DNA of 42,583 nucleotides, from NCBI GenBank assembly GCA_964247395.1, contig CAXTUK010000001.1:1-42583 (forward strand), in the 5' to 3' direction. The translations under genes and the position numbers were made by a program. The DNA is from an uncultured Acetobacteraceae bacterium. GTDB taxonomy: Bacteria > Pseudomonadota > Alphaproteobacteria > Acetobacterales > Acetobacteraceae. The notes beneath the pieces are model-generated. The model saw only the letters and a list, made by a program, of their open reading frames with translations. It did not search any database and was not told the origin of the DNA. Of the stretch, positions 1,171-39,913 are shown in pieces. The first letter of the stretch is position 1. Each line of letters begins with the position of its first letter.

Positions 1171-1336
1171 CGCGCGCCGCGTCTCCTCCTCCGGACCACC
1201 GACCCCCAAATCGCTTCCCCGCCCGGTCGCCGCCAGGACGCTGCTACGACCCCGCGGGCCGGCTGCCAACCCTTTGCGCCGACGAGTCCAACGGATGAGC
1301 CGGATGTCAGAAGTGCGATGGTGCGCCCCCGGCCGC

Positions 1337-3004: not shown

Positions 3005-3012
3005 CCGCCGGT

Positions 3013-3981: not shown

Positions 3982-4004
3982 GCTCCCGATCGCTCACCAC
4001 TCGT

Positions 4005-7859: not shown

Positions 7860-7918
7860 GTCCAGTGCCTCGCGCGCCGACCTTTGGCCGGCGGCGGCCA
7901 CGGAATGGCGCGAGCCGC

Positions 7919-10018: not shown

Positions 10019-11019
10019 GGCGCCAGGACCGGTATCGCGCCGGCATCCGCGAGCCACGCCGTATCGACGCGCGACGGATACGCATGGCACGCAGCGGCCC
10101 GTCGAGACCGGACCGTGTCGAGCCAGTTGGCGAACAACGCGACTGCCCAGGGTTTCGGCGCATCCGCCAGCCGCACGTCATCAAGGACGCCGAGCACTTC
10201 CACCAGCACCGCCTGCTCACGCTTGCCCGACCCTTCCTCCCGCAATGCGCCGAGCGCGGCCGCGGTCGGACCATCGAAGAGGTTGTCCGGCAACTCCGGG
10301 TAGTCACCCCTCTCGCCGAGGAAGAAGCGGCGCGCGTCCCTCCTGTACTCGGAGATCAGACACTCCGAATCGTATTCCGGGTGACCCTGCAGGAACAGGA
10401 ATTGTGCTCCGGTCTCCTTGGCGAAGATGTCCACTCCGCGCCCGACCGTCCTCGACACGATCTCGTAGCCGCACCCGGCAAGCTCCTGTTCGGCCAAGTC
10501 ATGATAGCGGGAGTGCGGGCTCTGCCATCGGTTCGGCAAGCCGGCGCTCAGGCGATGCCCGGACGCGACCAGACGCGATTCGAACAGTCCCGACGCCTTG
10601 GTCTCGAAACGACGCCGCGCCAGACCGTCCAGGTGCAGCACCGCCGCATGAGCGGCGAGACACGAGAAGATCGTCGGCACCGAATGGCTCTCGGCCCAGT
10701 CGATGATCGCCGTCAAACGCGGCCAGACCGGCTCATCGGACAGTCGCGCCGTGACAGGTTCCATACCGGTCAGGATCAGACCCTCGATCCCGGAATCGAA
10801 CAACTCGTCCGCATCGCGGTAGCCGTCCGCGCCGGCGCGTGCCGGGACAGCATCCAGTTCCCGACACCGGAACAGCTCGAGCCGGACGCCGGCGGGCGAG
10901 GCGCGGCCCAGCAGGTCGCGAAAGCATCGTTCCGTATTGCGCAAGGCGCGGCCGGATGTGTTGTTGACCAATCCGATGATCGGCCGATCCGTCGTGCGCG
11001 GTCGCGTCTGCCGGTTCAT
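10015..11019 (-). CDS. metA: MetA-family homoserine O-acyl(succinyl/acetyl)transferase, divergent N-terminus
   Basis: By-eye alignment to E. coli MetA: IEGLILTGMEP, catalytic-Cys block PTIFSCLAAHAA, PHSRYHD, His/Glu block FLQGHPEYD, and LFANWLD. The E. coli LNLMPKK block is replaced by GLVNNTSG. ATGA overlap with the metY-like stop. Confidence 0.8.
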   Translation of the reverse strand: MNRQTRPRTTDRPIIGLVNNTSGRALRNTERCFRDLLGRASPAGVRLELFRCRELDAVPARAGADGYRDADELFDSGIEGLILTGMEPVTARLSDEPVWPRLTAIIDWAESHSVPTIFSCLAAHAAVLHLDGLARRRFETKASGLFESRLVASGHRLSAGLPNRWQSPHSRYHDLAEQELAGCGYEIVSRTVGRGVDIFAKETGAQFLFLQGHPEYDSECLISEYRRDARRFFLGERGDYPELPDNLFDGPTAAALGALREEGSGKREQAVLVEVLGVLDDVRLADAPKPWAVALFANWLDTVRSRRAAACHAYPSRVDTAWLADAGAIPVLAP

Positions 11020-12350
11020 CGAGCGGCCGTCATCAGGTTCTCGTCGGTCTCACGCGCGGGTGCTGCCGCCTGACGGCCGACGGCGATGCCGAGCGCCCGA
11101 TCGAGATCGGCGACAATGTCGTCGACATGCTCGATGCCGATGCTCAACCGGATCATGTCCGCGGTCACGCCGGCCTTTCCCTGCTCGTCGGCCGACATCT
11201 GCCGGTGCGTGGTCGAGGCCGGGTGGCAGGCAAGCGACTTCGAATCACCCAGGTTGACGACCCTCTTGACCAGGCGCAGCGCGTCGTAGAACCGCACGCC
11301 GGCCGCAAAGCCGCCTTCGATGCCGAAGGCCATCAGCGAGCAGGGCCGGCCGCCAAGGTATTTCCCGACCAGCCCATGGTAGCGGTTGTCCCGGAACCCG
11401 GCATAGTTGACCCACGCGACGCGCGGGTCCCGGGCGAGGAAGTCCGCGATCCGTCGGGCATTCTCGACATGACGGTCGATCCGCACCGCGACCGTCTCGA
11501 TCCCCTGCAGCAACAGGAACGCATTGAAGGGCGACAGGGCGCTTCCGGTGGTGCGTAGGAAGACGCTGCGGCAGCGGGCGATGTAGGCCGCCGGCCCGAA
11601 ATGGTCGTTGTAGACCAGGCCGTGATAGGAACGGTCCGGCTCGCTGAACATCGGGAACTTCCCGGCCGTCGCCGCCCAGGGAAACTTGCCGCTATCGACG
11701 ATGGCGCCACCGAGCGTCGTTCCATGCCCGCCGAGGAACTTGGTCAGCGAGTGGACGACGATGTCGGCGCCGAATTCGATGGGCCGCGACAACATCGGCG
11801 TCGCCACGGTGTTGTCGACGATGAGCGGCACGCCGTGCCGGTGCGCCACGTCGGCCAGGGCCTCGATGTCGGCCACGTTCCCCGCCGGATTGCCGACCGT
11901 CTCGCAGAACACCGCGCGCGTTTGCGGATCGATCATCTTCTCGATGTCGACCGCGCCGTCGCTCCTGGCGAACTTGACGGTCACGCCCTGACTGGGGAAC
12001 AGGTGAGCGAAAAGCGAATGGGTGGTGCCGTAGAGCTGCGGGACGGAGACGACGTTCGTCCCGGGACTGACGACGTTGGCGACGGCGTAGTGCAGCGCAG
12101 ACTGACCGGACGCCACCACCAGCGCTTCGATCCCGCCCTCGAGTGCGCACACGCGCGCTTCCAGCACCGCGTTCGTCGGATTGCTGATCCGGCTGTAGCG
12201 ATGACCGTCCGTTTCCAGGTTGAACAGTGCCGCCGCATGCTCGGCGCTGTCGAATTCGTAGGCGACGGTCTGATGGATCGGTACCGCTAACGATCGCGTC
12301 GTCGCGTCTTTGTCGAAGCCGGCGTGGAGCGCGATCGTCTCGTTACGCAT
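11016..12350 (-). CDS. metY: O-acetyl/O-succinyl-homoserine sulfhydrylase family PLP enzyme (MetY/MetZ/CGS gamma-replacement fold)
   Basis: Motifs MRNETIALHAGF, YSRISNPT, PLIVDNTVATP, PLP-Lys block VVHSLTKFLGGHG, and NLGDSKSLACHPASTTH. 444 aa. Confidence 0.85.
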   Translation of the reverse strand: MRNETIALHAGFDKDATTRSLAVPIHQTVAYEFDSAEHAAALFNLETDGHRYSRISNPTNAVLEARVCALEGGIEALVVASGQSALHYAVANVVSPGTNVVSVPQLYGTTHSLFAHLFPSQGVTVKFARSDGAVDIEKMIDPQTRAVFCETVGNPAGNVADIEALADVAHRHGVPLIVDNTVATPMLSRPIEFGADIVVHSLTKFLGGHGTTLGGAIVDSGKFPWAATAGKFPMFSEPDRSYHGLVYNDHFGPAAYIARCRSVFLRTTGSALSPFNAFLLLQGIETVAVRIDRHVENARRIADFLARDPRVAWVNYAGFRDNRYHGLVGKYLGGRPCSLMAFGIEGGFAAGVRFYDALRLVKRVVNLGDSKSLACHPASTTHRQMSADEQGKAGVTADMIRLSIGIEHVDDIVADLDRALGIAVGRQAAAPARETDENLMTAAR

Positions 12351-12508
12351 AGGAGGCTGAACCCTGCCTGGCCGCCCTCGATCCGCCCATGACCGAACCG
12401 GTCTTCACGATCGCTGGTGTGACGGTATTTTGGACATGTTTGTCGTTATGCGACAATTAACCCGTTTGGACGCGGTCAAATGGTCTGCATCTTGCCCGTC
12501 CAGTGGGA
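12351..12508 (-). promoter_or_regulatory. AT-richer intergenic leader upstream of the metY-like sub-operon (probable internal promoter/operator)
   Basis: This is the only sizeable gap (158 nt) in the 4.9-19.5 kb minus-strand gene string. GC is visibly lower here, and it contains the 6-5-6 palindrome TTGTCGttatgCGACAA at 12440-12456. No consensus -35/-10 could be assigned. Confidence 0.35.
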
Positions 12509-13243
12509 TCAGGCCGTGTTCCCGGCGTCCACCGTCATCACGGTGCCGGTGATGTTCCGGGCCTTGTCGCTGAAGAGATAGTCCACGAGGTGCGCCACGT
12601 CGTCGATCTCGGGCATCCGTCGCAGCGCACTGCGCCGCTTGATCTTCTCCCGCTCCTCCGACGTGAGACTGTCGGTCATGTCAGTGTCGAGAAAACCGGG
12701 CGCCACGACGTTCACGGTGATCCCGAGCGGCCCGAGTTCGCGCGCCAGCGACCGCGTGAACCCGATCAGCGACGCCTTCGTCGCGCTGTATGCGGACATC
12801 CCGCTGTAACCGGTCGAACTCACGATGGACGAGATGTTCACGATGCGCCCGCCGGCTTGCCCGAGCATCGAACGCACCACGTGCCGCGTCAGGATCAACG
12901 GGGCCAGCGTGTTCAGCCGCACGAGGCTCTCGATCTCGCGGTCGGGCATGTTGGCGAGCACGCCGGCCGTGCCGAGGCCGGCATTGTTGACCAACCCGTA
13001 GATCGGACCGTGCGTCGCCTTCAGCGTCTTCACCAGGCCGGGCAAGCCGCCGGTGTCGGCCAGGTCGAAAGCCTTGAAATGCAACCTGCCTAGCGGCACG
13101 CCTTCGAGCTCCTGCCTCGCCGTCGTGAGTATCTCGCTGTCGCGGCGGGCGACCGCCACGACGTTGAAGCCGGACAACGCCAGCCTCCGCGCGATGCCGA
13201 GTCCGAGGCCCCGGCTGCCGCCGGTCACCAGCACATTACGCAA
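12509..13243 (-). CDS. Short-chain dehydrogenase/reductase, FabG (3-oxoacyl-carrier-protein reductase)-like
   Basis: Motifs VLVTGGSRGLG, NNAG, catalytic YSATK, and PGFLDTDM. Start re-assigned to TTG 13241-13243 (GGAG 7 nt upstream) or GTG 13232-13234. The longer track ORF overlaps the ligase gene. Confidence 0.85.
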   Translation of the reverse strand: MRNVLVTGGSRGLGLGIARRLALSGFNVVAVARRDSEILTTARQELEGVPLGRLHFKAFDLADTGGLPGLVKTLKATHGPIYGLVNNAGLGTAGVLANMPDREIESLVRLNTLAPLILTRHVVRSMLGQAGGRIVNISSIVSSTGYSGMSAYSATKASLIGFTRSLARELGPLGITVNVVAPGFLDTDMTDSLTSEEREKIKRRSALRRMPEIDDVAHLVDYLFSDKARNITGTVMTVDAGNTA

Positions 13244-14627
13244 GCGCGCGCTCCATCTTTCCCGACGGCGCGATCCCGAGACAGGCGACCTGTTCGATGA
13301 TTGCCGGCACTTCGTGGGCGGCGAGACTTCGCCGGCACAGATGCCGGACCTCGTCGCTGATCGCCGCCGGGTCGAGAACTCCGACATGGATGTCCTTGAG
13401 GACATATTCGGCGATTACGAGCGCGCCGGTGATCGGGCTTCGCCGTCCAGAGACCCGGGACATGAGAACCGCTTCGTGCTGGTTGATCACCGCCTCGACC
13501 GTTTCCGGACTGACCTTGCGTCCGCCGACATTGATCACCCCGCCGCGGCGCCCGGAAAAAAAGCATCGCCCGTCGCGGATCTCGATCAGGTCGCCGGTGT
13601 CGACGAAACCCCGCTCATCGGCGAGCTTCGGCATGTCCGCTCCAAGATAGCCCGTCGCGGCGCGGGGAGAGCGGATGCGCAGAGATCCGTCCTCGATGGC
13701 GAGATCGACGCCCTCGCCGCGGTATCCGATCAACGAGACCGGAAAGCCCGCTCGGCCGTCGCGAACGTCGAACGCGATGCCGGCTTCGGTGGAGGCGAAC
13801 GCATGTGCGATCTCGGCATCGGGGAAGGTGCGACGTAGGCCGTCCAGGATGGCCTGATCGGCGGCCTCTCCGGACAGTCGCAGATAGCGCGGCGACATCT
13901 TCGAGAGCGCGTCGCTCATCAGCGCTCGCCGCCAATGCGTGGGCGTGCCCGAAATGTGCGTGACACCGGACCTGCCCGCGCGAGCCAGGAAGTCGGACGC
14001 AGGTTCGCCATCGCCGGACAGGACGAGCGACCCGCCGCCAACCAGGGCCCGGATGAGGATCTGCAGTCCCCCGTAGCGGCGGACGTCGTAGAACGTGCTC
14101 CACACCTTGTGGTCGCCGGCGACCGCATCGGCGAGCGGTCCCGAGAGGCTCGAGAATGTATGCATGGCCAGCTTCGGAGATCCGGTCGAGCCGGACGTGA
14201 ACAGCACCCATTCGGTGTCGACGTCGCGTGCGATGGCGTCGGACATGGCGTCGAGCCGGTCGCTGCACGCCACCAGCTCCGCACGAAGCTGTCCGAACTC
14301 GGACATGTCGCCGTCGGTCAGGATGATCTCGCATGCCGCATCGGTCGCGGCTTGCGTCAGCTGGTTGCGCGTGATGCCAGGCGGACGGATCACTAATCGC
14401 GCGGCGATGCCGTCGAGGGCGGCCAGGGCGCAGATCGTCGGCATCTGCCTTGCCGTGGACAACATCACCGATTGGTCGCGGAACTCTTCGAGCGGCCGTC
14501 CAAGTCCGGATCCATCGGCGACCTCGTGCACCGCCAGCCGCATCTGCGCGTCGGCCACGAAGCTCTCGGGCCTGTCCGCCCGCGCGACCATCCGGTCCCG
14601 GAGCGAAGCGATCCTACGCGGCCGCAT
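13236..14627 (-). CDS. ANL-superfamily adenylating ligase (DltA-role / acyl-carrier-protein ligase candidate)
   Basis: Motifs WVLFTSGSTGSPK, AFASTEAG, FVDTGDL, GRRGGVINVGGRKVSPETVE and the C-terminal APSGK. Start is ATG 14625-14627 (14-nt overlap with the ACP) or ATG 14589-14591. Confidence 0.8.
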   Translation of the reverse strand: MRPRRIASLRDRMVARADRPESFVADAQMRLAVHEVADGSGLGRPLEEFRDQSVMLSTARQMPTICALAALDGIAARLVIRPPGITRNQLTQAATDAACEIILTDGDMSEFGQLRAELVACSDRLDAMSDAIARDVDTEWVLFTSGSTGSPKLAMHTFSSLSGPLADAVAGDHKVWSTFYDVRRYGGLQILIRALVGGGSLVLSGDGEPASDFLARAGRSGVTHISGTPTHWRRALMSDALSKMSPRYLRLSGEAADQAILDGLRRTFPDAEIAHAFASTEAGIAFDVRDGRAGFPVSLIGYRGEGVDLAIEDGSLRIRSPRAATGYLGADMPKLADERGFVDTGDLIEIRDGRCFFSGRRGGVINVGGRKVSPETVEAVINQHEAVLMSRVSGRRSPITGALVIAEYVLKDIHVGVLDPAAISDEVRHLCRRSLAAHEVPAIIEQVACLGIAPSGKMERALA

Positions 14628-14874
14628 CTTCGTATAGCCTGATGAAATCGCCAACCGTGACCGGGAATGCGACATCTTCGCCGGTCGAGAACGGATCAAG
14701 GTCCAACCGGTCATCCAGGCTCGCGACGATCACCGCGATGCAGAGCGAGTCCAGACCCGAATCGAGCAGACGAAGCTGATCGGACAAGGGTGCCAGACGC
14801 TTGTCCTGCTGCTCGGCGACACGGACGATCTCGCCCAGCACGATCGAGCGTATGGGGGTTGTCGGATTTTCCAA
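14614..14874 (-). CDS. Acyl/peptidyl carrier protein (phosphopantetheine attachment LDSGLDSLC)
   Basis: 4-helix-bundle-sized ORF with a DSL serine motif. I prefer the second in-frame TTG (14872-14874) because GGAGG lies 5 nt upstream. The track start at 14898 is also a TTG. Confidence 0.7.
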   Translation of the reverse strand: MENPTTPIRSIVLGEIVRVAEQQDKRLAPLSDQLRLLDSGLDSLCIAVIVASLDDRLDLDPFSTGEDVAFPVTVGDFIRLYEDAAA

Positions 14875-14894
14875 TTGGGCCTCCTGGGTCGGAA

Positions 14895-16544
14895 TCAACG
14901 AGAGGGTTCGTGGGCGCCGTCGGACGTCGTCGCCTGAAGGAAGCCGATCATTTGTCGGGCGGCGATCTCCCGCATCGGGCCGGTCGTCAGATCATGATCC
15001 AGTTCGTGGCTGACGCAGCGATGCATCCCGGGAAACGTCAGGAGCTCCTTGCCGGCTTCGCCGAAATGCCGGTCGAGAGCATCGAGGCCGGCGTCGCCGC
15101 CGCCGAACAGGAGCAGCGTCCTCACCCCACGCTCGGCGAGGTTTCGCATCCCGCGCCGCGCAGCGCTCCCCGGCCCCGGCCGGTCGACGCGAAGCGAGAA
15201 GCAGGGAAGATTGACCAGCAGCAAGTCGCTCACCCGCGTCTCGGCGAGCGCACCCTGCCACGCGTGATACGCACCCGAGCACAAGCCGTTCAGGGCGAAC
15301 CGGCGGAACCCTTGCCGCTCGAGTTCGTCGAGAGACGCTGCGATATCCGGTGTTCTGTCGACGGTGAAGACGTGGTTGCAGTCCTCGATCCCGTTCGAGG
15401 CGGCGGCCTCGCTGTCGCCGAGTCCGGCGAAATCGAACCTGAACGAGCAGATCCCGGCACCCGCCAAGCGTCTCGCGAACTCGACGGAAAATCGCGCGAA
15501 TCCGTGATGCGGGTCGCCGCCCGTGTTGGCGATCAGCACCACGCGGTCGCTGGCTGCGTCTCGTGGCCGGCACAGCATCCCGAACAATCGGCGTCGCTGT
15601 CCGAAAGGAACTGGAATTTCGACGCAATCCGCCGGACGTAAGGTGCGAGCAGGCAGCGTCGAGCGCGCCATGCGCCTCGTCACCACCGGCGCCAGGCGGT
15701 CTCGCAGCCAGGACAGGATCGGTTGCAGGTCGGCGGAGGGCTCGTCGGCCAGGTGGCTCGGCCGAAGGAAGCCTTCGAGACCGCTGAACGGCAGGCACGT
15801 GACGTCCGCGCCGCCGTCGCGCCAAGCCTTCCTGCATGCCGACAGGAGCGGCGACTCATACTGCGTGAACAGCGACACATGATCCGCGCCGGGTCGGACC
15901 TGCCGCAGGTCGAGTTCCGACAGTCTCTCCACCGTCTCGGCGGAGAGACTCAGTTCATTGAGTGTCACGCCACCCTCCGGCCGCGTCTCGACCGACGCCC
16001 GAAGCCGTGACTCGACGCTCAGCTGCGAGATGAACGATCGGCCGCGAAGCACCGGCTCCAGCATCACCAGACCCCGGACATCGTCCCTCGCGGCGGCGAC
16101 GATCGCGGCGAGCGTGGCGCCGAGCCTGAGCCCGACGAGAACCAGACTTTCCGCACCGCTCACGCGCCGCAGCCAGTCCGCGGCGGCCTGCACGTTGCCC
16201 TGCCAAGCCTCCCAGCATTCAGCGCCGTCGAGCTCGAGCGAGTCGCCGGTGCCCTCGTAGTCGAACCGCAGCGTCGGGTAGCCTTGCGCACCCAGCCCGT
16301 TCGCCAGTAATCGGAACTGCCGATGCGCGTTGCTCGCATCGCGACCGACGCCGGAGCACAGGACCACCGCGACATCCCCGGTCACAACATCCGTTGCCGG
16401 GTGATACCAACCGAAGCAGCCACCGAACGACACCGGCTCCATGCGCGGCATAATCGGGCGGATCGCGTCTGCCTCGTCTTGTTCGGGCAGACTCCGGAAG
16501 CCACCCGACACGTTCGCATTTCGGCTATCGGCGACGGTTGTCAT
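14895..16544 (-). CDS. Fusion of two alpha/beta-hydrolase-fold domains (non-canonical nucleophile elbows)
   Basis: 549 aa with two repeats of the pattern: VVLxxxG..., then F(D/R)FxGxGDS, then an elbow. Elbow 1 is VGLRLGA (Arg at the nucleophile position, codon 16125-16127). Elbow 2 is NGLCSGA (Cys, codon 15279-15281). Confidence 0.7.
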   Translation of the reverse strand: MTTVADSRNANVSGGFRSLPEQDEADAIRPIMPRMEPVSFGGCFGWYHPATDVVTGDVAVVLCSGVGRDASNAHRQFRLLANGLGAQGYPTLRFDYEGTGDSLELDGAECWEAWQGNVQAAADWLRRVSGAESLVLVGLRLGATLAAIVAAARDDVRGLVMLEPVLRGRSFISQLSVESRLRASVETRPEGGVTLNELSLSAETVERLSELDLRQVRPGADHVSLFTQYESPLLSACRKAWRDGGADVTCLPFSGLEGFLRPSHLADEPSADLQPILSWLRDRLAPVVTRRMARSTLPARTLRPADCVEIPVPFGQRRRLFGMLCRPRDAASDRVVLIANTGGDPHHGFARFSVEFARRLAGAGICSFRFDFAGLGDSEAAASNGIEDCNHVFTVDRTPDIAASLDELERQGFRRFALNGLCSGAYHAWQGALAETRVSDLLLVNLPCFSLRVDRPGPGSAARRGMRNLAERGVRTLLLFGGGDAGLDALDRHFGEAGKELLTFPGMHRCVSHELDHDLTTGPMREIAARQMIGFLQATTSDGAHEPSR

Positions 16545-16550
16545 GCCGGT

Positions 16551-17669
16551 CTATCCGATGTGACCGCAGCGATCCGCCAGCGCGGCCGGGTTCCTGCCGG
16601 CGAGTTCCGCTCGCAACCACTCGCCAAGTTCGCGGCTGTATGCCTCGGCGCCGTTCGCGTTGAAGTGCCAGGCATCGCCGAAGAACCTGTCCGGCCAGCA
16701 CGGGACCGCAGGCCCGACGACCCGGGTTCCATGAAAGCGCATGGAGGTCGCGCGGAGATAGTTGGCGACCTGCTCACCGACGCGTTTGGGAACGCGGTCA
16801 TAGCTGGCCTGATTGATCGGCATCGCCAACAGCAGGACCGGCACGCCGCGCTTGGCGAGCAGGCCGAGCGTCCGCGAGAGATAGAGATCGATCAACGGCG
16901 ATATCGACGCGTTGCCGGCCTTGACCTCCGTCGTGAGCTCGCTGGAGCCCGACGCCGTTCCGAACAGCGCGTGGCCGGAGGCGGACAGGCAGTCATGCAG
17001 GGCGCGCCGATTGTGCGCCCATCGGGCGGCGAGCCCGGCATTGACCAGGCTGTCGAAATAGAATCCCGGAAACCGGACCGCAAACAACAGATCGCGCACC
17101 ATCGGAGGAAGCTGGTCGCCTCGCCGCAACCGCTGGAGTTCGCGGTCGTGCAGGCGGCCCGCGTCGTCGTCGACCAGCCGCATGGCTCGCAGGCCGAGGA
17201 AACCTGTCCGGGCGCCGAAATTCCAGTAGTCCGGATCGGCGGTGAATTTGAGCGGGCCATGGGCGATGACGACGAGACGCGGCGGCGTCGGGCACCGCAG
17301 CGCACGGGACACCGCGAAGTAGGTCTCGATCGGACTGGTCCCGGACAGGGCGAAGTTCTTCACGGCGACCGGCATCACTCTCGGATCGATCGCGGCCAGC
17401 GTCCGGCTGTCGCCGAACACGGCGACGGAGCCGAGCTGACAGGCATCGAGCATCGTCCGTTTGGCGACCCAGAGCGGATAATCCCGGCTGAGGAAGGCCA
17501 TCGGTGCCGCCGCGACATAGATCCACGCCAGACCAAACAGGGCAACGAACGTGACGCCGAGCCACTCGAGGAAGCCCGGCGTCGCCCATCTGGTGGACCG
17601 GATCGAGCGAGCCGGCCGAGCCGTTTCGTCCTGATCCCCGGCGACCCGCAGCATGGTGGCATCGATCAT
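16551..17669 (-). CDS. Membrane-anchored SGNH-hydrolase-like protein (DltD/AlgJ-role O-acyltransferase candidate)
   Basis: N-terminal TM helix FLEWLGVTFVALFGLAWIYVAAAP, block I VAVFGDSRT (GDS) and C-terminal block V GDAWHFN (DxxH). Positioned directly after the MBOAT gene. Confidence 0.6.
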   Translation of the reverse strand: MIDATMLRVAGDQDETARPARSIRSTRWATPGFLEWLGVTFVALFGLAWIYVAAAPMAFLSRDYPLWVAKRTMLDACQLGSVAVFGDSRTLAAIDPRVMPVAVKNFALSGTSPIETYFAVSRALRCPTPPRLVVIAHGPLKFTADPDYWNFGARTGFLGLRAMRLVDDDAGRLHDRELQRLRRGDQLPPMVRDLLFAVRFPGFYFDSLVNAGLAARWAHNRRALHDCLSASGHALFGTASGSSELTTEVKAGNASISPLIDLYLSRTLGLLAKRGVPVLLLAMPINQASYDRVPKRVGEQVANYLRATSMRFHGTRVVGPAVPCWPDRFFGDAWHFNANGAEAYSRELGEWLRAELAGRNPAALADRCGHIG

Positions 17670-17682
17670 CGCGCGCGTCCGC

Positions 17683-19245
17683 TCAGAACCTGAAATAGAG
17701 GAACTCGCTGGTTCCCCCGATCGCCAGGACGCCCAGGCAACCCATCGCGCCGATCACCATCGCCGAGGGCAGGTCCGGCCGCCAGACGAGGCGTTGCAGG
17801 CGGCCGGCCTGCACCTGGCCGATCGCCGGATGGAACAGACGCATCATCTGCTGGGTGTTCGGCATTCCCCAGACGATCGAGTACAGAACGGCAACCCAGA
17901 GGACATGGCAGGCCAGCGCGATGGAGGCGGCGTCCGGAGCGCCGCCCAGGATGTGGGCCGGGAGACCGACCGGGCCCATTCCATGCAGCCCGATCATGCC
18001 GGCCAGGAGGTCCAGGGCGTCCGGGACCGACGCTGCACGAAAGAACACCATCGCGACCACGGTTGCGATGTAGGTCAGCAGGACGTTGCCGGCACGGACC
18101 GACCAGCCCGCATCCGCGCTGCCCCGGCGGCGGCGCAGGATGCGAAACGCGTGATTGGTCGTGAGATAGATTCCGTGCAGGGCCCCGAAGACGAGGAACT
18201 GCAGCCCTGCGCCGTGCCAGACGCCAGCCAAGGTCATGGTCAGGATCGTCGGAAACGCGACCATGGTCGCGAACCCCGACGACGTGGCCTGCGCCGCCCT
18301 GGTGATACCAAGCCCGTTGCGGGCGCGCCACCTCGTGATCGCCATGGCCATCGGGCCATACACGTACGACGCGAGGTAACGCGACAACGTCATGTGCCAT
18401 CGCTGCCAGTGCTCGATGATCGAGGCCGCCTTGTAGGGGGAGTCGAAGTTCAGCGGGAACTTGACGTTGAACATCCGGGCCAGGCCGATCGCCATGTCGG
18501 AGTAGCCGGAGAAGTCGAAATAGATCTGCAACGAGAAGCAGAGCGCGGCGTTCCAGGCGGCAAGTAGCGGCAGATGCCCCGCGTCCCCGAAGCCGGCGCG
18601 GACGACCGGTGCAAGCGGGTCCGCAAGCAGGCATTTCTTCGCGAGCCCGATCGCGAAGATCGACAGCCCGACCGAGAAATCCTCGCGAGAGAACCGCCAG
18701 GTCCGCCGGTCGGCGAACTGCGGCATGATCTCCTGGTGATGCAGGATCGGACCTGCGATCAGGTGCGGGAAGAACGTCACGAACAGGACGTAATCCAGCG
18801 GGCTGCGGTCCTCGTTCAAGCCCTGCATCCTGTCCACCAGGTAGCCGATCTGCGTGAACGTGAAGAACGAGATCCCGAGCGGCAGGACGAGATCGGGCAG
18901 CGTCGCGTGGATCAGCCCGAGCCCGGTCAGCGCATGCACGACGCTCACCAGATACTTGAAGGCGAACAGTGCGGCGAGATTGACCGAGATCGCGCCGGCC
19001 AGGCAGGTTGCCTGCAAGCGAGGCCGAGATCGAACCGCTCCGATCAGTTCCGCCGACCCGTAGTTGAAGGCGATGGAAGCGCCCAGCAGAACCAGCGACG
19101 AGGGATTCCACCAGCCATAGAAGACCAGCGATGCCAAGACCAGCCAGGAAGCCGCCGCCACCCTTCCGCTGCGGCAGCACAGACGAAAGCCCACCAGGAC
19201 GCACGGCATGAAGAGGAAGATGAAAACGTAGGAGTTGAACAGCAT
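17683..19245 (-). CDS. MBOAT-family membrane-bound O-acyltransferase (AlgI/DltB type) with extra C-terminal TM helix ending in FLYFRF
   Basis: MLFNSYVFIFLF N-terminus, GISFFTFTQIGYLVD, FPHLIAGPI, YFDFSGYSDMAIGLARMFN, and the catalytic-His block IIEHWQRWHMTLS. 520 aa. Confidence 0.9.
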   Translation of the reverse strand: MLFNSYVFIFLFMPCVLVGFRLCCRSGRVAAASWLVLASLVFYGWWNPSSLVLLGASIAFNYGSAELIGAVRSRPRLQATCLAGAISVNLAALFAFKYLVSVVHALTGLGLIHATLPDLVLPLGISFFTFTQIGYLVDRMQGLNEDRSPLDYVLFVTFFPHLIAGPILHHQEIMPQFADRRTWRFSREDFSVGLSIFAIGLAKKCLLADPLAPVVRAGFGDAGHLPLLAAWNAALCFSLQIYFDFSGYSDMAIGLARMFNVKFPLNFDSPYKAASIIEHWQRWHMTLSRYLASYVYGPMAMAITRWRARNGLGITRAAQATSSGFATMVAFPTILTMTLAGVWHGAGLQFLVFGALHGIYLTTNHAFRILRRRRGSADAGWSVRAGNVLLTYIATVVAMVFFRAASVPDALDLLAGMIGLHGMGPVGLPAHILGGAPDAASIALACHVLWVAVLYSIVWGMPNTQQMMRLFHPAIGQVQAGRLQRLVWRPDLPSAMVIGAMGCLGVLAIGGTSEFLYFRF

Positions 19246-19260
19246 CGGCCGGGGAATACC

Positions 19261-19527
19261 CTAGCGCGCAGCCACGGAGGATCTCTCCTCGATCAGCCTC
19301 ACGAGTTCTCCGACGTCGCTCAATCGGCCCAGCTCGCCCGACCGTAAATGGATGCCGAACGCCTGCTCCGCCTCCACCGTGAAGGAGACTTGAGTCAGCG
19401 AATCCCAGCCGCGCAACTCATTCATCGGCGTGTCCGGCCGCACTGCCAACCGCGGCACGTCCAGGACCTCCTGAAGTATGGTCTCGACCCGGCTCAGAAC
19501 GGCCTGCTTCATGATGAGGAGATCCAT
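19261..19527 (-). CDS. Carrier protein (DltC-role candidate), Ser attachment motif GWDSLTQV
   Basis: 88-aa ORF (83 aa if it starts at the second ATG, 19512) immediately upstream of the MBOAT gene, with a 15-nt gap. It has the WDSL motif and the acidic helix pattern of PP-binding proteins. Confidence 0.7.
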   Translation of the reverse strand: MDLLIMKQAVLSRVETILQEVLDVPRLAVRPDTPMNELRGWDSLTQVSFTVEAEQAFGIHLRSGELGRLSDVGELVRLIEERSSVAAR

Positions 19528-19774
19528 TCGACGACGCGCGTGACCATCGCCCTGCGGCTCGGGACGCCCGGGGCAAGTCGTGAACCTACAATCCCGCGCC
19601 GAAAATCAGAATCATCAGAAAGGTCAGGGTTGAGTGAAGCGAGGCCGAAGCGCCGCTGACCGGGATGTCGGCGATCAGCCTTTCGGCCAAGCCCAAACAT
19701 CGAGCTTACCATTCGGCGACAAACGACTAACGTCTGGCCCGCGGACTGGCGCGGGCGCAACAGGGAGGCTCCTG
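19528..19774. promoter_or_regulatory. Divergent intergenic region (carrier/MBOAT operon leftward, GT4 genes rightward) with nested inverted repeats
   Basis: 247-nt gap. GCCGAAA (19598-19604) pairs with TTTCGGC (19681-19687), and GGTCAG (19622-19627) pairs with CTGACC (19656-19661). The distal ~100 nt are homologous to the leader of the second GT4 copy. GGGAGG RBS at 19763-19768. Confidence 0.35.
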
Positions 19775-22294
19775 ATGAAGATCGCTCTGATCCATGAGTG
19801 GTTCGTCACCTACGCAGGTTCCGAGAAGGTGCTCGAAGCCATCATGTCGGAGTATCCCCAGGCCGACATTTTCTGCCTGATCAACGATCTGCCGGACGAG
19901 CATCGTCACCGCTTTTCGGGTCGGTCGATCAGGACCTCGTTCCTGCAGCGCATCCCGTTCATCAGGAGATGCTATCGCTACGCCCTCTCGCTGATGCCGC
20001 TCGCGGTCGAGCAGTTCGATCTGTCCGGTTACGACCTGATCATCAGCAACTGCCACGCGGTCGCCAAGGGAGTGATCACCGGGCCCGACCAGCTGCATAT
20101 CTGCTACTGCTACACGCCGATGCGCTACGCGTGGGACCTGCAGTGCCAATACCTCGATGAATCCGGCCTGAAGAGTGGGTTGCGAAGTCTTGTTGCCCGA
20201 TGGCAGCTGCACCACGTCAGGATGTGGGACTATCGAGCGGCGCAGAGCGTCGATTACTTCATCTCCTGCTCGGCCTACATCGCTCGACGCATCCATACCG
20301 CCTACCGGCGCGAGTCGTCGGTGATCCACCCCAACGTCGCCGTCGAGGACTTCGTCATCGGTGGCGTCCGGGAGGATTTCTACCTGACGTCGTCGCGAAT
20401 GGTGCCCTACAAGAAAATCCATCTCATCATCCAGGCCTTCGCCGCCATGCCGGACAGACGGCTCGTCGTCATCGGCGCCGGTCCGCAGTTCGAGCGCTGC
20501 AAGGCGCTGGCTGGCCCGAACGTCGCCATGATGGGCTACCAGTCGCACGCGGTGCTGCTGTCGCACATGCAACGGGCGCGGGCCTTCATCTTCGCCGCCG
20601 AGGAGGATTTCGGCATCACCCCCGTCGAGGCGCAGGCCTGCGGCACACCGATCCTGGCCTACGCCCGCGGCGGCTCGGCGGAAACCGTGATCGACGGCGT
20701 CACCGGCCTGCATTTCCATCAGCAGACGCCGCTCGCCATCGAAGCCGTCGTCCGGGACTTCGAAGCCATCGAGGACCAGTTCGACCCGGAGACCATACGG
20801 TCCCACAGCCTCCGGTTCTCGACCGAGCGCTTCCGCCGCGAGATCAGGGCCTTCGTCGATGCGAGATGGACCGAGCACCGCCATCGTCTCGATCCGCCGC
20901 GCAAACGTCTCCTATTTCCGGAACTGCTCCTATCCACGCCAGCCGACGTCGCCGGAGAAGCGCATGTCCTCACGGTGTGAGGCACGCGCCCGACGCGGGC
21001 ACCGGTCGGCGGGGCCGGAATGAGGAAGGGCGGCCGCCTCACGCCCGAAAAATCAGCCTTTCGGTCAAGCTCGAACATCGACCTTACGACGAAGCGGCGA
21101 ACGACTACCGTCGGCAATATCGCGACCTGGCGCGGACGCAAGTTGGAGGCTCCTGATGAAGATCGCGCTGATCCATGAATGGCTCGTGACCTACGCAGGC
21201 TCCGAGAAGGTGCTCGAGGCCATCATGTCGGAATACCCCCAGGCCGATATCTTCTGCCTGATCGACGATCTGCCGAAGGAGCATCGTCATCGCTTTTCGG
21301 GCCGGTCGATCAAGACCTCCTTCCTGCAGCGCATTCCCTTCCTGGCGAAGTTCTACCGCTACACTCTCTTCTTGATGCCTCTGGCCGTCGAGCAGTTCGA
21401 TCTGTCCGGCTACGACCTGATCATCAGCAACTGCCACGCGGTCGCCAAGGGAGTGATCACCGGGCCCGACCAGCTGCATATCTGCTACTGCTACACGCCG
21501 ATGCGCTACGCGTGGGACCTGCAGTGCCAATACCTCGATGAATCCGGCCTGAAGAGTGGGTTGCGAAGTCTTGTTGCCCGATGGCAGCTGCACCACGTCA
21601 GGATGTGGGACTATCGAGCGGCGCAGAGCGTCGATTACTTCATCTCCTGCTCGGCCTACATCGCTCGACGCATCCATACCGCCTACCGGCGCGAGTCGTC
21701 GGTGATCCACCCCAACGTCGCCGTCGAGGACTTCGTCATCGGTGGCGTCCGGGAGGATTTCTACCTGACGTCGTCGCGAATGGTGCCCTACAAGAAAATC
21801 CATCTCATCATCCAGGCCTTCGCCGCCATGCCGGACAGACGGCTCGTCGTCATCGGCGCCGGTCCGCAGTTCGAGCGCTGCAAGGCGCTGGCTGGCCCGA
21901 ACGTCGCCATGATGGGCTACCAGTCGCACGCGGTGCTGCTGTCGCACATGCAACGGGCGCGGGCCTTCATCTTCGCCGCCGAGGAGGATTTCGGCATCAC
22001 CCCCGTCGAGGCGCAGGCCTGCGGCACACCGATCCTGGCCTACGCCCGCGGCGGCTCGGCGGAAACCGTGATCGACGGCGTCACCGGCCTGCATTTCCAT
22101 CAGCAGACGCCGCTCGCCATCGAAGCCGTCGTCCGGGACTTCGAAGCCATCGAGGACCAGTTCGACCCGGAGACCATACGGTCCCACAGCCTCCGGTTCT
22201 CGACCGAGCGCTTCCGCCGCGAGATCAGGGCCTTCGTCGATGCGAGATGGACCGAGCACCGCCATCGTCTCGATCCGCCGCGCAAACGTCTCCT
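19674..22294 (+). repeat. Tandem duplication, unit about 1381 bp (leader + GT4 gene), with an apparently 100%-identical 884-bp core (20030-20913 = 21411-22294)
   Basis: Compared by eye and through the ORF track. Three forward frames and the antisense frame give identical peptides across the core. The last 5' difference is T20029 vs C21410, and divergence resumes at 20914/22295. Confidence 0.9.
19775..20980 (+). CDS. Family-4 (GT-B, group 1) glycosyltransferase, tandem copy A
   Basis: [24 protein letters not shown]-terminus and the E-x7-E region [23 protein letters not shown]. The ATG at 19775 follows GGGAGG. The upstream part of track ORF 19634.. is rejected. Confidence 0.85.
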   Translation: MKIALIHEWFVTYAGSEKVLEAIMSEYPQADIFCLINDLPDEHRHRFSGRSIRTSFLQRIPFIRRCYRYALSLMPLAVEQFDLSGYDLIISNCHAVAKGVITGPDQLHICYCYTPMRYAWDLQCQYLDESGLKSGLRSLVARWQLHHVRMWDYRAAQSVDYFISCSAYIARRIHTAYRRESSVIHPNVAVEDFVIGGVREDFYLTSSRMVPYKKIHLIIQAFAAMPDRRLVVIGAGPQFERCKALAGPNVAMMGYQSHAVLLSHMQRARAFIFAAEEDFGITPVEAQACGTPILAYARGGSAETVIDGVTGLHFHQQTPLAIEAVVRDFEAIEDQFDPETIRSHSLRFSTERFRREIRAFVDARWTEHRHRLDPPRKRLLFPELLLSTPADVAGEAHVLTV

Positions 22295-22361
22295 GCCACT
22301 GGAGTTGCTCGGTCCGCTTTCCGACGAAATCAATGAAGAAGCAGGCGTCCTCACAGCATGA
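21156..22361 (+). CDS. Family-4 glycosyltransferase, tandem copy B
   Basis: 401 aa. Identical to copy A through the central/C-terminal core and diverged at the first ~85 and last ~22 residues. Its stop overlaps the gmd start (ATGA 22358-22361). Confidence 0.85.
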
Positions 22362-25991: not shown

Positions 25992-26027
25992 CAGCCGCAA
26001 CCCCGCCCGGCAGGGGGCGCCTGCCCC

Positions 26028-39909: not shown

Positions 39910-39913
39910 TCCA

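Follow-up and report, generated by a model that had tools for sequence, protein, structure and literature searches.

A conserved gene block of acid-soil Alphaproteobacteria that probably decorates an exopolysaccharide with an unusual acyl group

Genes and features of the locus

The window, i.e., the whole analysed stretch of 42,583 nucleotides from an uncultured Acetobacteraceae bacterium, carries a cassette of seven minus-strand genes with a coding-type GC3 of 0.80-0.88 (Table 1). The seven same-strand genes of a preliminary description have proven to be real open reading frames, and every motif quoted there (WDSL, HWQRWHMTLS, GDS...DAWH, LDSL, FTSGSTGSPK, TGGSRGLG, YSATK) has been found in the translations. 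The junctions from carrier 1 to the SDR measure +15, +13, +6, -4, +22 and +1 nt, and the tight packing described earlier holds. ATG 14591 is the most probable start codon of the ligase; with its longest open reading frame, the junction to carrier 2 would become -101 nt. For the SDR, a start inside the ligase gene has been rejected in favour of GTG 13234, 1 nt past the ligase stop. Five of the seven have Pfam matches (PP-binding, MBOAT, Abhydrolase/Hydrolase_4, AMP-binding and adh_short), whereas the 372-aa protein and carrier 2 have no Pfam or NCBIfam match. The surroundings agree with the Wzx/Wzy setting proposed before: a MOP flippase, a Wzc above the curated cut-off, WbaP and a weak Wzy_C match have been found in the window, together with two GDP-mannose dehydratases and several GT4 genes. 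The cassette lies between the flippase, Wzy-like, Wzc and WbaP genes, and carrier 1 is immediately preceded by GT4 and GDP-mannose dehydratase genes, as it is in many other loci.

Table 1. Genes of the cassette and of the second, co-conserved block, with their positions in the window.
Feature	Position	Strand	Size and assignment
Carrier 1	19261-19527	-	88 aa; ACP, PF00550
MBOAT	17683-19245	-	520 aa; AlgI/PatA-type, PF03062
DltD-like SGNH protein	16551-17669	-	372 aa; AlphaFold model and Foldseek
Double alpha/beta hydrolase	14895-16544	-	549 aa; Abhydrolase/Hydrolase_4, TIGR03101 and TIGR03100
Carrier 2	14614-14898	-	~81-94 aa; ACP-like, orthologue profile against PDB
ANL ligase	13236-14591 (longest ORF 13236-14714)	-	~451 aa; PF00501 and PF13193
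FabG-like SDR	12509-13234	-	241 aa; adh_short
MetY-type O-acetylhomoserine sulfhydrylase	11016-12350	-	444 aa; TIGR01326, 587 bits (above the cut-off of 495)
MetA-like homoserine O-acyltransferase	10015-11019	-	334 aa; PF04204, E 5e-44
Group II PLP-dependent amino-acid decarboxylase	8585-10090	-	~480-501 aa; PF00282, E 9e-52
Orphan heme-oxygenase-like (diiron oxidase-type) protein	7919-8584	-	221 aa; AF2 and Foldseek
Long-chain acyl-CoA synthetase (PRK08279 type)	6123-7943	-	NF006134, 672 bits (above the cut-off of 625)

The MBOAT (PF03062, E 4e-19) carries its catalytic His284 in WHMTLS, in alignment with the DltB histidine. Its identification as DltB has nevertheless been rejected, as it scores 158 bits against TIGR04091 (DltB; cut-off 375), is closer to a generic AlgI-type MBOAT (206 bits, 33% identity) than to DltB (87 bits), and ends in a fused FXYXXF motif, F515-L-Y517-F-R-F520 (FLYFRF, nt 17686-17703). 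FxYFxF forms the extreme C-terminus of all intact MBOAT orthologues and is invariant in ~30 relatives. FXYXXF is the acyl-tyrosine shuttle motif, which resides on the separate peptide DltX in Dlt and is fused in PatA/AlgI (PMC12148441); with the motif fused to the MBOAT, a fifth Dlt role, that of DltX, is built in. Of the "complete Dlt-like machine" that had been postulated, the set of ligase, carrier, MBOAT and DltD-like protein thus stands, and the DltB identity gives way to an AlgI/PatA type.

Carrier 1 (PF00550, E 2e-8) has its phosphopantetheine serine, Ser43, in WDSL, invariant among 12 orthologues, and its NCBIfam matches are restricted to AcpP-type acyl-carrier models, every score being below cut-off. 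For carrier 2, a profile of 20 orthologues has matched ACPs of the PDB (MacpD with E 1e-5, and PKS ACPs), and Ser51 in GLDSL is invariant. The 372-aa protein, which has no PDB sequence match either, belongs to a family of ~100 clusters, every one annotated as hypothetical. Its AlphaFold (AF2) model (pLDDT 87.8) has retrieved DltD as the top five Foldseek hits in the PDB (prob 1.0, E 3e-5 to 7e-4), with further SGNH hydrolases ranking behind them. An N-terminal membrane anchor (~residues 33-55) precedes Ser88 (GDS) and Asp332 and His335 (DAWH); G86, D87, S88 and H335 are invariant and D332 is nearly so. From its modelled fold, the protein is proposed to be a DltD-like SGNH protein and a candidate periplasmic transferase to the polysaccharide.

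The double hydrolase combines an N-domain (residues 41-176) resembling hydr2_PEP (TIGR03101, 92 bits) and a C-domain (residues 319-445) resembling hydr1_PEP (TIGR03100, 93 bits), both below cut-off, and by these matches it unites in one protein the two uncharacterised hydrolases that are associated with exosortase A. The nucleophile elbow of the N-domain holds Arg140 (G-L-R-L-G), that of the C-domain Cys422 (G-L-C-S-G), the latter together with Asp516-His517. Across 75 double-hydrolase sequences, the N-domain arginine has been found in 67 and the C-domain cysteine in 73. The ligase matches PF00501 and PF13193 and reaches no NCBIfam cut-off (best MenE, 91 vs 330 bits; ligase_PEP_1, 65 bits); its best PDB match has E 1e-15, and the substrate is not readable from the sequence. 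The SDR (adh_short, E 1.6e-52; TIGR01830 3-oxoacyl-ACP reductase, 207 bits, cut-off 298) is a probable 3-oxoacyl/3-hydroxyacyl-carrier oxidoreductase as judged from these models.

Conservation and modular structure

The same gene order has been observed in 16 loci of GTDB species-representative genomes and in ~10 metagenome contigs, mostly of Acetobacteraceae, with protein identities of 40-70%, which is more than chance would give. All 16 genome loci have a carrier 1-family ACP that ends 15 nt before the MBOAT. Of 14 informative contigs found via the DltD-like protein, 13 have the MBOAT upstream of it, and the double hydrolase follows the DltD-like gene wherever at least ~1.5 kb is available, except in locus L098. 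Every locus with the ligase has carrier 2 as the gene just before it, and in nearly all loci the SDR follows the ligase.

The boundary drawn at 12509-19527 has turned out to be too narrow, as a second block at 6123-12350, beginning with MetY after a 158-nt spacer behind the SDR and ending with the acyl-CoA synthetase as its last co-conserved gene, accompanies the cassette in 12 of the 16 genome loci; in the remaining four, it is missing within 10 kb, and the seven cassette genes stay together even there. MetY shares 61-77% identity with its counterparts in same-order loci. The MetA-like protein (NF003776, 286 bits, cut-off 358) contains FSCLAAHA, whose cysteine we take to be the active-site residue, and GHPEYD, the catalytic role of both motifs being assumed from MetA. 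The nearest PDB entries of the decarboxylase are the DesA lysine decarboxylase (E 4e-51), 4RIT and DABA decarboxylases. The 221-aa orphan has no match in Pfam, NCBIfam or PDB sequences, yet its homologues number more than 2279 (clusters), each carrying a hypothetical annotation. Its AF2 model (pLDDT 90.4) has led Foldseek to PolF, CADD, HamA, TenA, PqqC and BesC. The protein has invariant His, Glu and Asp positions, and its gene always follows those of MetY, HTS and decarboxylase. The acyl-CoA synthetase also adjoins many double-hydrolase genes without the remainder of the block.

Ligase, carrier 2 and SDR form a separable module, usually with the double hydrolase, which also occurs in loci without an MBOAT; the module including the double hydrolase and the MetY-to-synthetase block are found in ~20 loci devoid of any MBOAT. 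What they make may hence have a destination other than an MBOAT, and the "extra" enzymes noticed earlier, although present, are not mere add-ons. Conversely, close relatives of the MBOAT/DltD-like pair have been found with no nearby carrier, ligase or double hydrolase (L098, L099), and in L090 the DltD-like gene has no adjoining MBOAT. The stand-alone MBOAT/DltD-like relatives sit among housekeeping and not polysaccharide genes. The MBOATs of the cassettes group together in a rough neighbour-joining tree, adjoined by the carrier-less pairs and by the MBOAT of L084, a locus with an FkbH-like loader in which no carrier has been found. The carrier-linked MBOATs of Ralstonia and Rhodobacteraceae fall just outside the group. 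They belong to a cassette on a plasmid of Rhodobacteraceae SC52 (carrier 1-family ACP, FkbH-like protein, MBOAT, DltD-like protein) and to one on a megaplasmid of Ralstonia sp. RRA.1 (AlgX, AlgX, MBOAT, PP-binding carrier, ANL ligase); no paper on either has been found in the searchable literature, their annotation being generic only.

Proposed acyl transfer and competing readings

Since the ligase/carrier/MBOAT/DltD-like set is conserved as one unit and, in most loci, adjoins GT4 and GDP-mannose dehydratase genes, a carrier-fed Dlt-like acylation is the best reading. With moderate confidence, we infer that the region serves the carrier-fed MBOAT/SGNH acylation of a glycan of the envelope. The acceptor is most likely the locus's own Wzx/Wzy polysaccharide, which had been named as such before and remains the best reading given the GT4 and GDP-mannose dehydratase neighbours in many loci. 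The group decorating the exopolysaccharide would probably be an unusual acyl group and not acetate. The ligase, proposed as the loader of carrier 2, its partner, would adenylate a carboxylic acid and charge this carrier, and the SDR would set a beta-hydroxy (or beta-oxo) function on the tethered acyl chain. As the ligase adjoins carrier 2 and not the MBOAT-side carrier 1, a carrier-to-carrier transfer is needed. This step is proposed for the double hydrolase as a thioester transacylase working on carriers, its C-domain binding the acyl chain to Cys422 as a thioester and passing it to carrier 1; alternatively, the C-domain may load carrier 1 from an acyl-CoA that the adjacent acyl-CoA synthetase supplies. 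Elsewhere, the double hydrolase stands beside carrier-1-type ACPs together with a PP-binding/thioesterase fusion (L011) or a free NRPS condensation domain (L065).

Carrier 1, proposed as acyl donor in a DltC-like role, would bring its phosphopantetheine-bound thioester to the funnel that the MBOAT opens on the cytoplasmic side, where His284 would catalyse transfer to the enzyme's own Tyr517 (FLYFRF) on the periplasmic side; the membrane-anchored DltD-like protein would then accept the acyl group on Ser88 and esterify the polysaccharide. Both the passage of D-Ala from the DltC phosphopantetheine via DltB to the FXYXXF tyrosine and the DltD serine, and the equivalent transfer from acetyl-CoA via the fused FXYXXF of PatA, are precedents for this (PMC12148441). 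Our best guess for the cargo is a beta-hydroxyacyl group of short or long chain. The block of MetY, MetA-like protein, decarboxylase and heme-oxygenase-like protein may contribute an amine part derived from homoserine or homocysteine, by adding or supplying it, and against a link of this block to the ligase counts that the product of a PLP decarboxylase has no alpha-carboxylate to adenylate.

Among the features that count against carrier feeding are the arginine at the expected nucleophile position of the N-domain, which leaves the role of this domain unexplained, and the AlgI/PatA type of the MBOAT, characterised members of which are acetyl-CoA users. The latter, with the fused FXYXXF, speaks for two unrelated systems side by side, an acetyl-CoA MBOAT/DltD-like O-acetyltransferase (AlgI/AlgJ- or PatA/PatB-like) and a separate thiotemplated metabolite pathway of carriers, ligase, SDR, double hydrolase and MetY-to-synthetase block. 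The existence of same-family pairs that lack carrier and double hydrolase leaves room for such a plain acyl-CoA donor, and elsewhere the biosynthetic module is found with other off-loading enzymes in place of an MBOAT. We consider this division unlikely, as carrier 1 keeps its 15-nt distance to the MBOAT in 16 of 16 cassette loci, the double hydrolase begins 6 nt past the DltD-like gene, and the seven genes stay joined even where the second block is missing; moreover, a carrier 1-family ACP accompanies related MBOATs having an FkbH-like loader, and carrier and ligase flank the Ralstonia MBOAT.

Quite unlikely is a different acceptor (LPS/O-antigen, peptidoglycan, a periplasmic glucan, a lipid or a protein) reached by the same mechanism. 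Peptidoglycan, teichoic acids, alginate and cellulose are all known targets of MBOAT/SGNH pairs (PMC12148441), the dlt-like dra locus of Bordetella modifies an outer-membrane component, and the housekeeping surroundings of stand-alone relatives would suit this reading too; the cassette type, however, consistently has GT4 and GDP-mannose dehydratase genes as its neighbours, and in the window it is enclosed by the flippase, Wzy-like, Wzc and WbaP genes. That the MBOAT pair moves or attaches the acyl chain of a lipid or secreted small molecule, e.g., an N-acylated homoserine- or homocysteine-derived amine, with no polymer modified, appears very improbable. In its favour, natural-product or lipid pathways typically include an acyl-CoA synthetase, a decarboxylase, a heme-oxygenase-like oxidase and thioesterase/condensation variants like those seen here, and the MetY/HTS/decarboxylase/heme-oxygenase-like module is far commoner (>2279 clusters) than the DltD-like protein (~100), but the only role known for DltD-like/SGNH proteins that partner bacterial MBOATs is transfer to polymers (PMC12148441), the cassette is embedded among polysaccharide genes, and four cassette loci have no MetY block nearby.

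Comparison with known systems

As supposed in the preliminary description, a characterised equivalent of the cassette composition has not been found in the searchable literature. The carrier-fed polysaccharide acylation proposed here has much in common with Dlt (DltA, DltC, DltB, DltX and DltD; teichoic acid D-alanylation in Firmicutes) and with its Gram-negative homologue, Bordetella dra, in which a ligase-loaded carrier likewise feeds an MBOAT that passes the acyl group across the membrane via the FXYXXF tyrosine to a membrane-anchored DltD-fold SGNH protein and on to the polymer. However, none of the window proteins is a Dlt orthologue, and the ligase best matches MenE/acyl-CoA-ligase-type models. 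The MBOAT itself carries the DltX motif, the ligase stands beside the non-MBOAT carrier, two carriers, an SDR and a Cys-type double hydrolase are present, and the setting is a Gram-negative Wzx/Wzy locus.

The extra C-terminal hydrophobic segments and the fused FXYXXF of the MBOAT, a periplasmic SGNH-type partner and a glycan acceptor are common to PatA/PatB (peptidoglycan), AlgI/AlgJ/AlgX/AlgF (alginate) and WssH/WssI (cellulose). These acetyl-CoA-dependent O-acetyltransferases have no carrier protein and use acyl-CoA (PMC12148441), whereas the window encodes a dedicated, co-conserved ACP with loading enzymes and an SGNH partner that is DltD-like and not AlgX/AlgJ- or PatB-like.

By its profile scores, which stay below curated cut-offs, the ligase/carrier 2/SDR/double-hydrolase module appears related to the exosortase A (XrtA/PEP-CTERM) cassette of exopolysaccharide loci, which comprises a ligase (TIGR03098, ligase_PEP_1), TIGR03100, TIGR03101, an ACP and a PLP decarboxylase. 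The hydrolase halves of the window match hydr2 and then hydr1, and ligase, ACP and PLP decarboxylase are common to both. The corresponding NCBIfam models are typed 'hypoth_equivalog', and we know of no function shown for the XrtA-associated ligase/ACP/hydrolase cassette. The window differs from it in several ways: its proteins reach 92, 93 and 65 bits and so miss the cut-offs by a wide margin, the hydrolases are fused, and the decarboxylase is of group II and not of the Orn/DAP type of the XrtA-associated decarboxylase (TIGR03099); no exosortase or PEP-CTERM protein has been found in the window, and the known cassette has not been described with an MBOAT.

SyrC and CmaE are alpha/beta-hydrolase aminoacyl shuttles between carrier proteins. 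The alpha/beta-hydrolase fold with a cysteine nucleophile and the two carriers nearby suggest thioester-to-thioester acyl transfer, and the C-domain cysteine would fit a SyrC/CmaE-like shuttle. The likeness drawn here is one of features, and unlike those shuttles the double hydrolase includes a further domain whose nucleophile position is occupied by arginine. The SC52 and RRA.1 cassettes share the MBOAT clade and its C-terminal motif, the same or a related ACP family and a dedicated loader, but they have a single carrier and neither double hydrolase, SDR nor MetY block. Their loaders are different ones, which suggests a different cargo.

Gene content, setting and conservation of the cassette

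Seven ORFs have been found on the minus strand between 12509 and 19527, all with a coding-type GC3 of 0.80–0.88, and every motif that the preliminary description had listed for them is present in the translations. Profile searches against Pfam, which that description had proposed as a check, have confirmed five of the seven genes by family match (see the table). Two start codons have been corrected: the codon at 13240 is CGT, and therefore the SDR starts at GTG 13234, 1 nt past the ligase stop, while the ligase most likely starts at ATG 14591, 22 nt past the stop of carrier 2. With the corrected starts, the junctions amount to +15, +13, +6, −4, +22, and +1 nt. The setting within a polysaccharide locus with flippase, Wzy-like protein, Wzc, and glycosyltransferases (GTs) has likewise been recovered by family matches.

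Coordinates and family assignments of features in the window and in compared loci
Sequence	Coordinates	Strand	Feature	Assignment or remark
Window	1115–3004		MOP flippase	
Window	3013–4865		FemAB-like GNAT and divergent gene for a lipoyl/biotinyl-attachment-domain protein	GNAT with weak match to XrtA-associated FemAB family
Window	4862–6547	−	561-aa ORF	
Window	6123–12350		second block	MetY, MetA-like acyltransferase, group II PLP decarboxylase, 221-aa orphan, long-chain acyl-CoA synthetase
Window	7919–8584	−	221-aa orphan	
Window	12351–12508	−	SDR–MetY spacer	140–260 nt in all orthologous loci
Window	12509–19527	−	seven-gene cassette	
Window			carrier 1, 88 aa	PP-binding (Pfam)
Window			MBOAT, 520 aa	MBOAT (Pfam)
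Window			double hydrolase, 549 aa	alpha/beta-hydrolase families (Pfam)
Window			ligase	AMP-binding and AMP-binding_C (Pfam)
Window			SDR	adh_short (Pfam)
Window	19634–20980	+	GT4	
Window	21156–22361	+	GT4	
Window	24540–26000		Wzy_C protein	weak match
Window	26028–28241		Wzc	
Window	31698–33149		WbaP	
Window	39806–42180	+	ketoacyl synthase and type III polyketide synthase	chalcone-synthase-like
Window			two GDP-mannose 4,6-dehydratases, several GT4 genes	
L065	9899–14468		double hydrolase, 386-aa orphan, PP-binding carrier, condensation domain	
L084	6101–11008		FkbH-like loader, MBOAT, DltD-like protein	
L087	6736–12351		AlgX, AlgX, MBOAT, PP-binding carrier, ANL ligase	Ralstonia sp. RRA.1 megaplasmid
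L088	5781–10634		ACP, FkbH-like protein, MBOAT, hypothetical protein	Rhodobacteraceae SC52 plasmid pSC52_6
L090	860–2047		DltD-like gene	no adjoining MBOAT
L098	from ~716		MBOAT	
L098	~2358–3389		DltD-like gene	
L099	2386–3999		MBOAT	
L099	4034–5038		DltD-like gene	

Several features of the neighbourhood are recorded here in their own right. The proteins of the two adjoining GT4 genes are 95% identical, with ~290 consecutive identical residues. Related loci hold a single copy, and the pair has arisen either by tandem duplication in the very recent past or as an artefact of assembly. The two synthase genes at the right window end lie beyond a gene for the DNA glycosylase Fpg and seem to have no relation to the cassette. 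The FemAB-like gene forms a divergent pair with a gene for a lipoyl/biotinyl-attachment-domain protein, located between flippase and second block. The 561-aa ORF has given no family match and is only weakly conserved, next to the synthetase gene, in two loci. Its N-terminal part, which is rich in Arg and Ser and of low complexity, overlaps with that gene; the true protein start probably lies near Met133, followed by a signal-peptide-like stretch.

A genome survey seeded with a double-hydrolase profile, with one genome per GTDB species, has yielded 307 relatives, and 79 double-hydrolase loci have been examined with 10-kb flanks by tblastn with all window proteins. Carrier 1, MBOAT, the DltD-like gene, and the double hydrolase follow each other in the window's order at 16 of the 79 loci, hosted by Acidisphaera, Acidisoma, and uncultured Acetobacteraceae or Alphaproteobacteria; carrier 1 has been located in all 16 with the ACP annotated in a related plasmid cassette as query, whereas the window carrier 1 as query had missed it in a few of them. 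Carrier 2, ligase, and SDR move together across the surveyed loci and continue the cassette in 14 of the 16, the other two keeping only the SDR (L009) or none of the three (L010). After a spacer of 140–260 nt, the second block stands in the window's order at 12 of the 16 loci, and L085, found by an independent look-up, carries the same 12 genes. A metagenome scan seeded with the DltD-like protein has returned 15 contigs; the MBOAT lies directly upstream of the DltD-like gene in 13 of the 14 informative ones, and the double hydrolase directly downstream in nine. The segment 12509–19527 is therefore only the first operon of a conserved block, and the extent initially proposed is accurate for that operon but too short for the block as a whole, which has 12 genes in 12/16 genome loci and in L085.

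The block is modular. About 20 loci combine the double hydrolase with carrier 2, ligase, and SDR without an MBOAT, often together with the MetY block (e.g., L011, L025, L027, L033, L038, L051). No part is more widespread than the MetY block: MetY, the homoserine acyltransferase-like HTS, decarboxylase, and 221-aa protein stand alone in L082, and in L083 they are joined by carrier 2, ligase, SDR, synthetase, and a thioesterase. Lysine and diaminobutyrate are the substrates of the closest solved relatives of the decarboxylase. A PDB sequence search with the 221-aa protein has returned noise; the family of this protein comprises more than 2279 clusters without annotation, with 60–78% identity among the best 120 listed, and its invariant positions include many His, Glu, and Asp. 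The model of the protein, at a pLDDT of 90.4, matches PolF, CADD, HamA, and BesC with a probability of ~1.0, at E-values of only 0.004–0.03 and TM-scores of 0.45–0.57, from which a heme-oxygenase-like (diiron oxidase) fold is predicted. The gene adjoins those for MetY, the MetA-like enzyme, and the group II decarboxylase in every locus examined. Taken by themselves, these four genes resemble an undescribed pathway of amino-acid tailoring.

In the spacer ahead of MetY, the orthologous loci share one common motif only, of ~16 nt (C[TA]TT[CT]GG[AG]TGA[AG]TTGC), whose window copy, AAACGGGTTAATTGTC, runs into the palindrome TTGTCGcataaCGACAA. A search for a riboswitch has given no Rfam match, whether with the gathering threshold for the whole window or with E≤1 for the spacer, so that this stretch probably serves the operon from MetY to the synthetase as an internal promoter or operator; a promoter and terminator scan has shown nothing over shuffled expectation.

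The MBOAT and its DltD-like partner

The MBOAT, initially labelled AlgI/DltB-type, is by its sequence an AlgI/PatA-type enzyme with a built-in DltX rather than a DltB orthologue. The first half of the label is borne out by 33% identity and 206 bits to a generic AlgI-type MBOAT, against 87 bits to DltB; the second is not, as the sole NCBIfam match, the DltB model TIGR04091, scores 158.6 bits at a cut-off of 375. Among PDB entries, the DltB alignment spans residues 118–371, and His284 in WHMTLS aligns with the catalytic His motif of DltB, WHMSLS. DltB has about 380–425 aa and no fused shuttle motif. The window protein, at 520 aa, is ~100 residues longer, with a C-terminal extension that adds hydrophobic segments at ~388–406, 440–458, and 492–510 past the DltB-equivalent core, and its last six residues (515–520) read FLYFRF. 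All intact MBOAT orthologues and relatives collected carry the corresponding FXYXXF at their extreme C-terminus. This sequence has been described as an "acyl shuttle" motif: in the DltX micro-protein its Tyr takes D-Ala from DltC via DltB, and in PatA and related MBOATs, which carry it as a C-terminal fusion, it takes acetate from acetyl-CoA, the non-Dlt MBOAT/SGNH pathways operating without a carrier protein (PMC12148441).

For the 372-aa protein encoded next, sequence searches have given no match in Pfam or NCBIfam and only noise in the PDB; it belongs to a family of about 100 clusters at 90% identity that are all annotated "hypothetical". Its AlphaFold (AF2) model, computed with 36 homologues in the alignment, reaches a pLDDT of 87.8, and DltD accounts for each of the top five matches in the PDB (probability 1.0, E 3e-5 to 7e-4), with other SGNH hydrolases ranking after them. 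An N-terminal hydrophobic or TM helix is located at ~33–55; G-D-S88 and His335 are invariant and Asp332 nearly so, in a D-x-x-H arrangement. Taking membrane anchor, conserved triad, and DltD matches together, the earlier call of a TM-anchored SGNH protein was therefore right, and its fold is predicted to be specifically DltD-like.

Carriers, double hydrolase, and the proposed acyl route

Regarding the carriers, only AcpP-type NCBIfam models match carrier 1. No Pfam match has been obtained for carrier 2, yet its GLDSL keeps an invariant Ser, and a profile search of the PDB with 20 orthologues retrieves acyl carrier proteins (MacpD, E 1e-5). The comparison of the two carrier profiles is not significant (probability 2%), so the carriers are no close paralogues. 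The ligase adjoins carrier 2, not the MBOAT-side carrier; its best NCBIfam match is MenE at 91 bits, with no curated cut-off reached, and its PDB and NCBIfam neighbours give no inference on its substrate.

Carrier-linked MBOATs elsewhere are the strongest support for carrier 1 as the MBOAT donor. The plasmid locus L088 carries genes annotated "acyl carrier protein", "HAD-IIIC family phosphatase" (FkbH-like), and "MBOAT family protein", and a hypothetical protein that aligns weakly to the DltD-like profile; its ACP shares 32–46% identity with the carrier 1 proteins encoded in the cassette loci. L084 combines a comparable FkbH-like loader with MBOAT and DltD-like protein, and no ACP has been found there. 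These two cassettes, on which the literature search has returned no paper, may constitute a carrier-fed glyceryl-type polysaccharide acylation system. The megaplasmid locus L087 is an alginate-type acetylation set with an acquired carrier and ligase. A rough neighbour-joining tree unites the MBOATs of the cassette in a single group, beside which L084 and carrier-less pairs are placed, with the carrier-linked Ralstonia and Rhodobacteraceae MBOATs just outside. Counter-evidence comes from L098, L099, and probably L102, MBOAT/DltD-like relatives of a sister clade with housekeeping neighbours and no carrier: the L098 and L099 pairs lack carrier, ligase, and double hydrolase, and lie beside ferredoxin/CarD or cytochrome c maturation genes. 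The solitary DltD-like gene of L090 also counts against this donor. As a separate observation, the L088 and L084 cassettes adjoin sulfotransferase and sulfate-activation genes.

The double hydrolase is a fusion whose residues 41–176 match hydr2_PEP and residues 319–445 hydr1_PEP, the pair associated with exosortase A, both far under cut-off. Against the exosortase-A-associated models, the ligase scores 65 bits with TIGR03098 and the double hydrolase 93 with TIGR03100 and 92 with TIGR03101, at cut-offs of 592, 168, and 203. The nucleophile position is Arg in the N-domain of 67 of 75 sequences and Cys in the C-domain of 73 of 75, and an Asp-His pair is conserved close to the C-terminus. Next to carrier-1-type ACPs, the enzyme also occurs with other off-loaders, namely a PP-binding/thioesterase fusion (L011) or a free NRPS condensation domain (L065), and an acyl-CoA synthetase adjoins it in many relatives. 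Cys nucleophile, carrier neighbours, varied off-loaders, and synthetase neighbours form a pattern that fits a Cys-dependent transacylase charging or servicing a carrier, with the MBOAT as one of several exits. In L065, and also in L066 and L073, a 386-aa orphan, a PP-binding carrier, and the free-standing condensation domain come after the double hydrolase, and this arrangement is another off-loading variant of the hydrolase/carrier pair. A role as a PhaC-like polymerase of 3-hydroxyacyl units has been dropped, as no similarity supports it.

In the route that we propose, the ligase would charge carrier 2, the SDR would make a beta-hydroxyl on the tethered chain, and Cys422 of the double hydrolase would hand this acyl chain over to carrier 1 or, alternatively, charge carrier 1 from acyl-CoA. 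The MBOAT would then shift the group via His284 onto Tyr517, and Ser88 of the DltD-like protein would deliver it to the polysaccharide. Each of these acyl transfers is inferred from precedent (PMC12148441) and gene linkage. A switch of donor from CoA to carrier would be chemically small, because both offer the same phosphopantetheine thioester. We lean slightly towards the overall model of a carrier-fed MBOAT/DltD-like acylation; the specific relay and the cargo are much less certain. A beta-hydroxyacyl group is our first guess for the cargo, since the FabG-like reductase is the sole tailoring enzyme inseparable from the ligase. The second block suggests a gamma-substituted aminobutyrate that would be decarboxylated and oxidised. 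A joint reading, tentative and rather doubtful as a whole, would extend the donors of AlgI-type MBOATs beyond acyl-CoA and see here a whole clade of them fed by a dedicated ACP, with the cargo set by an exchangeable loader (ANL ligase, SDR, and Cys-hydrolase relay in the window, an FkbH-like enzyme elsewhere). In the window cassette, a two-carrier relay would then put a non-acetyl group on an exopolysaccharide, namely a beta-hydroxyacyl group, possibly joined to an oxidatively tailored homoserine/homocysteine-derived amine. Under this joint reading, relatives of the exosortase-A-associated hydrolase-1/hydrolase-2/ligase/ACP genes and the orphan heme-oxygenase-like family of >2000 members would receive a first function.

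If the model is true, Gram-negative bacteria can put non-acetate acyl groups on secreted polysaccharides by a Dlt-like route, and the donor type of an MBOAT becomes predictable from gene context. It would give a testable role to the DltD-like 372-aa, the fused Arg/Cys double-hydrolase, and the 221-aa heme-oxygenase-like families. Cultured strains with the cassette exist, among them Acidisphaera sp. S103 (locus L003, NZ_LMUJ01000059.1) and Acidisoma sp. L85 (locus L008, NZ_LMUQ01000024.1), so these questions are directly testable.

Comparison with known systems

No characterised equivalent of the cassette has been found in the searchable literature, which leaves most subscription journals outside its cover; this agrees with the initial impression that no characterised system had this composition. 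The present view of bacterial polymer acylation by MBOAT/SGNH pairs distinguishes two types, a carrier-fed Dlt system with separate DltX, and all others, described as fed by acetyl-CoA, with a fused motif and no carrier. In the cassette, an MBOAT of the fused-motif kind stands together with a dedicated carrier and with loading enzymes of its own.

Part of the cassette resembles the exosortase-A-associated ligase/ACP/hydrolase cassette, but without an exosortase: among the ORFs scanned in the 42.6-kb window no family match to exosortase has been obtained, and the same window holds no credible C-terminal PEP motif. Compared with the Dlt system, the cassette would work alike, but differs in its DltA, DltB, DltC, and DltX features. 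The separate DltX micro-protein is absent as such, its motif sitting on the MBOAT; in place of the DltA-type D-alanine ligase and DltC pair, there are a ligase that reaches no cut-off and an AcpP-type carrier 1. The membrane-anchored SGNH protein of DltD fold with a Ser/Asp/His triad has, according to the model, its counterpart in the cassette. Fused FXYXXF, DltD-type partner, and carrier together therefore place all five Dlt roles in a hybrid architecture of PatA/AlgI-type MBOAT, DltD-type partner, and carrier; the four roles named earlier stand, and become five with the shuttle motif, but the proteins are not orthologues of DltA, DltB, DltC, and DltX. With PatA/AlgI-type MBOAT/SGNH systems, the cassette shares the structural features of an invariant His and a C-terminal FXYXXF, but it contradicts their description as carrier-free, as the dedicated ACP, co-conserved directly upstream of the MBOAT, argues against an acyl-CoA donor.
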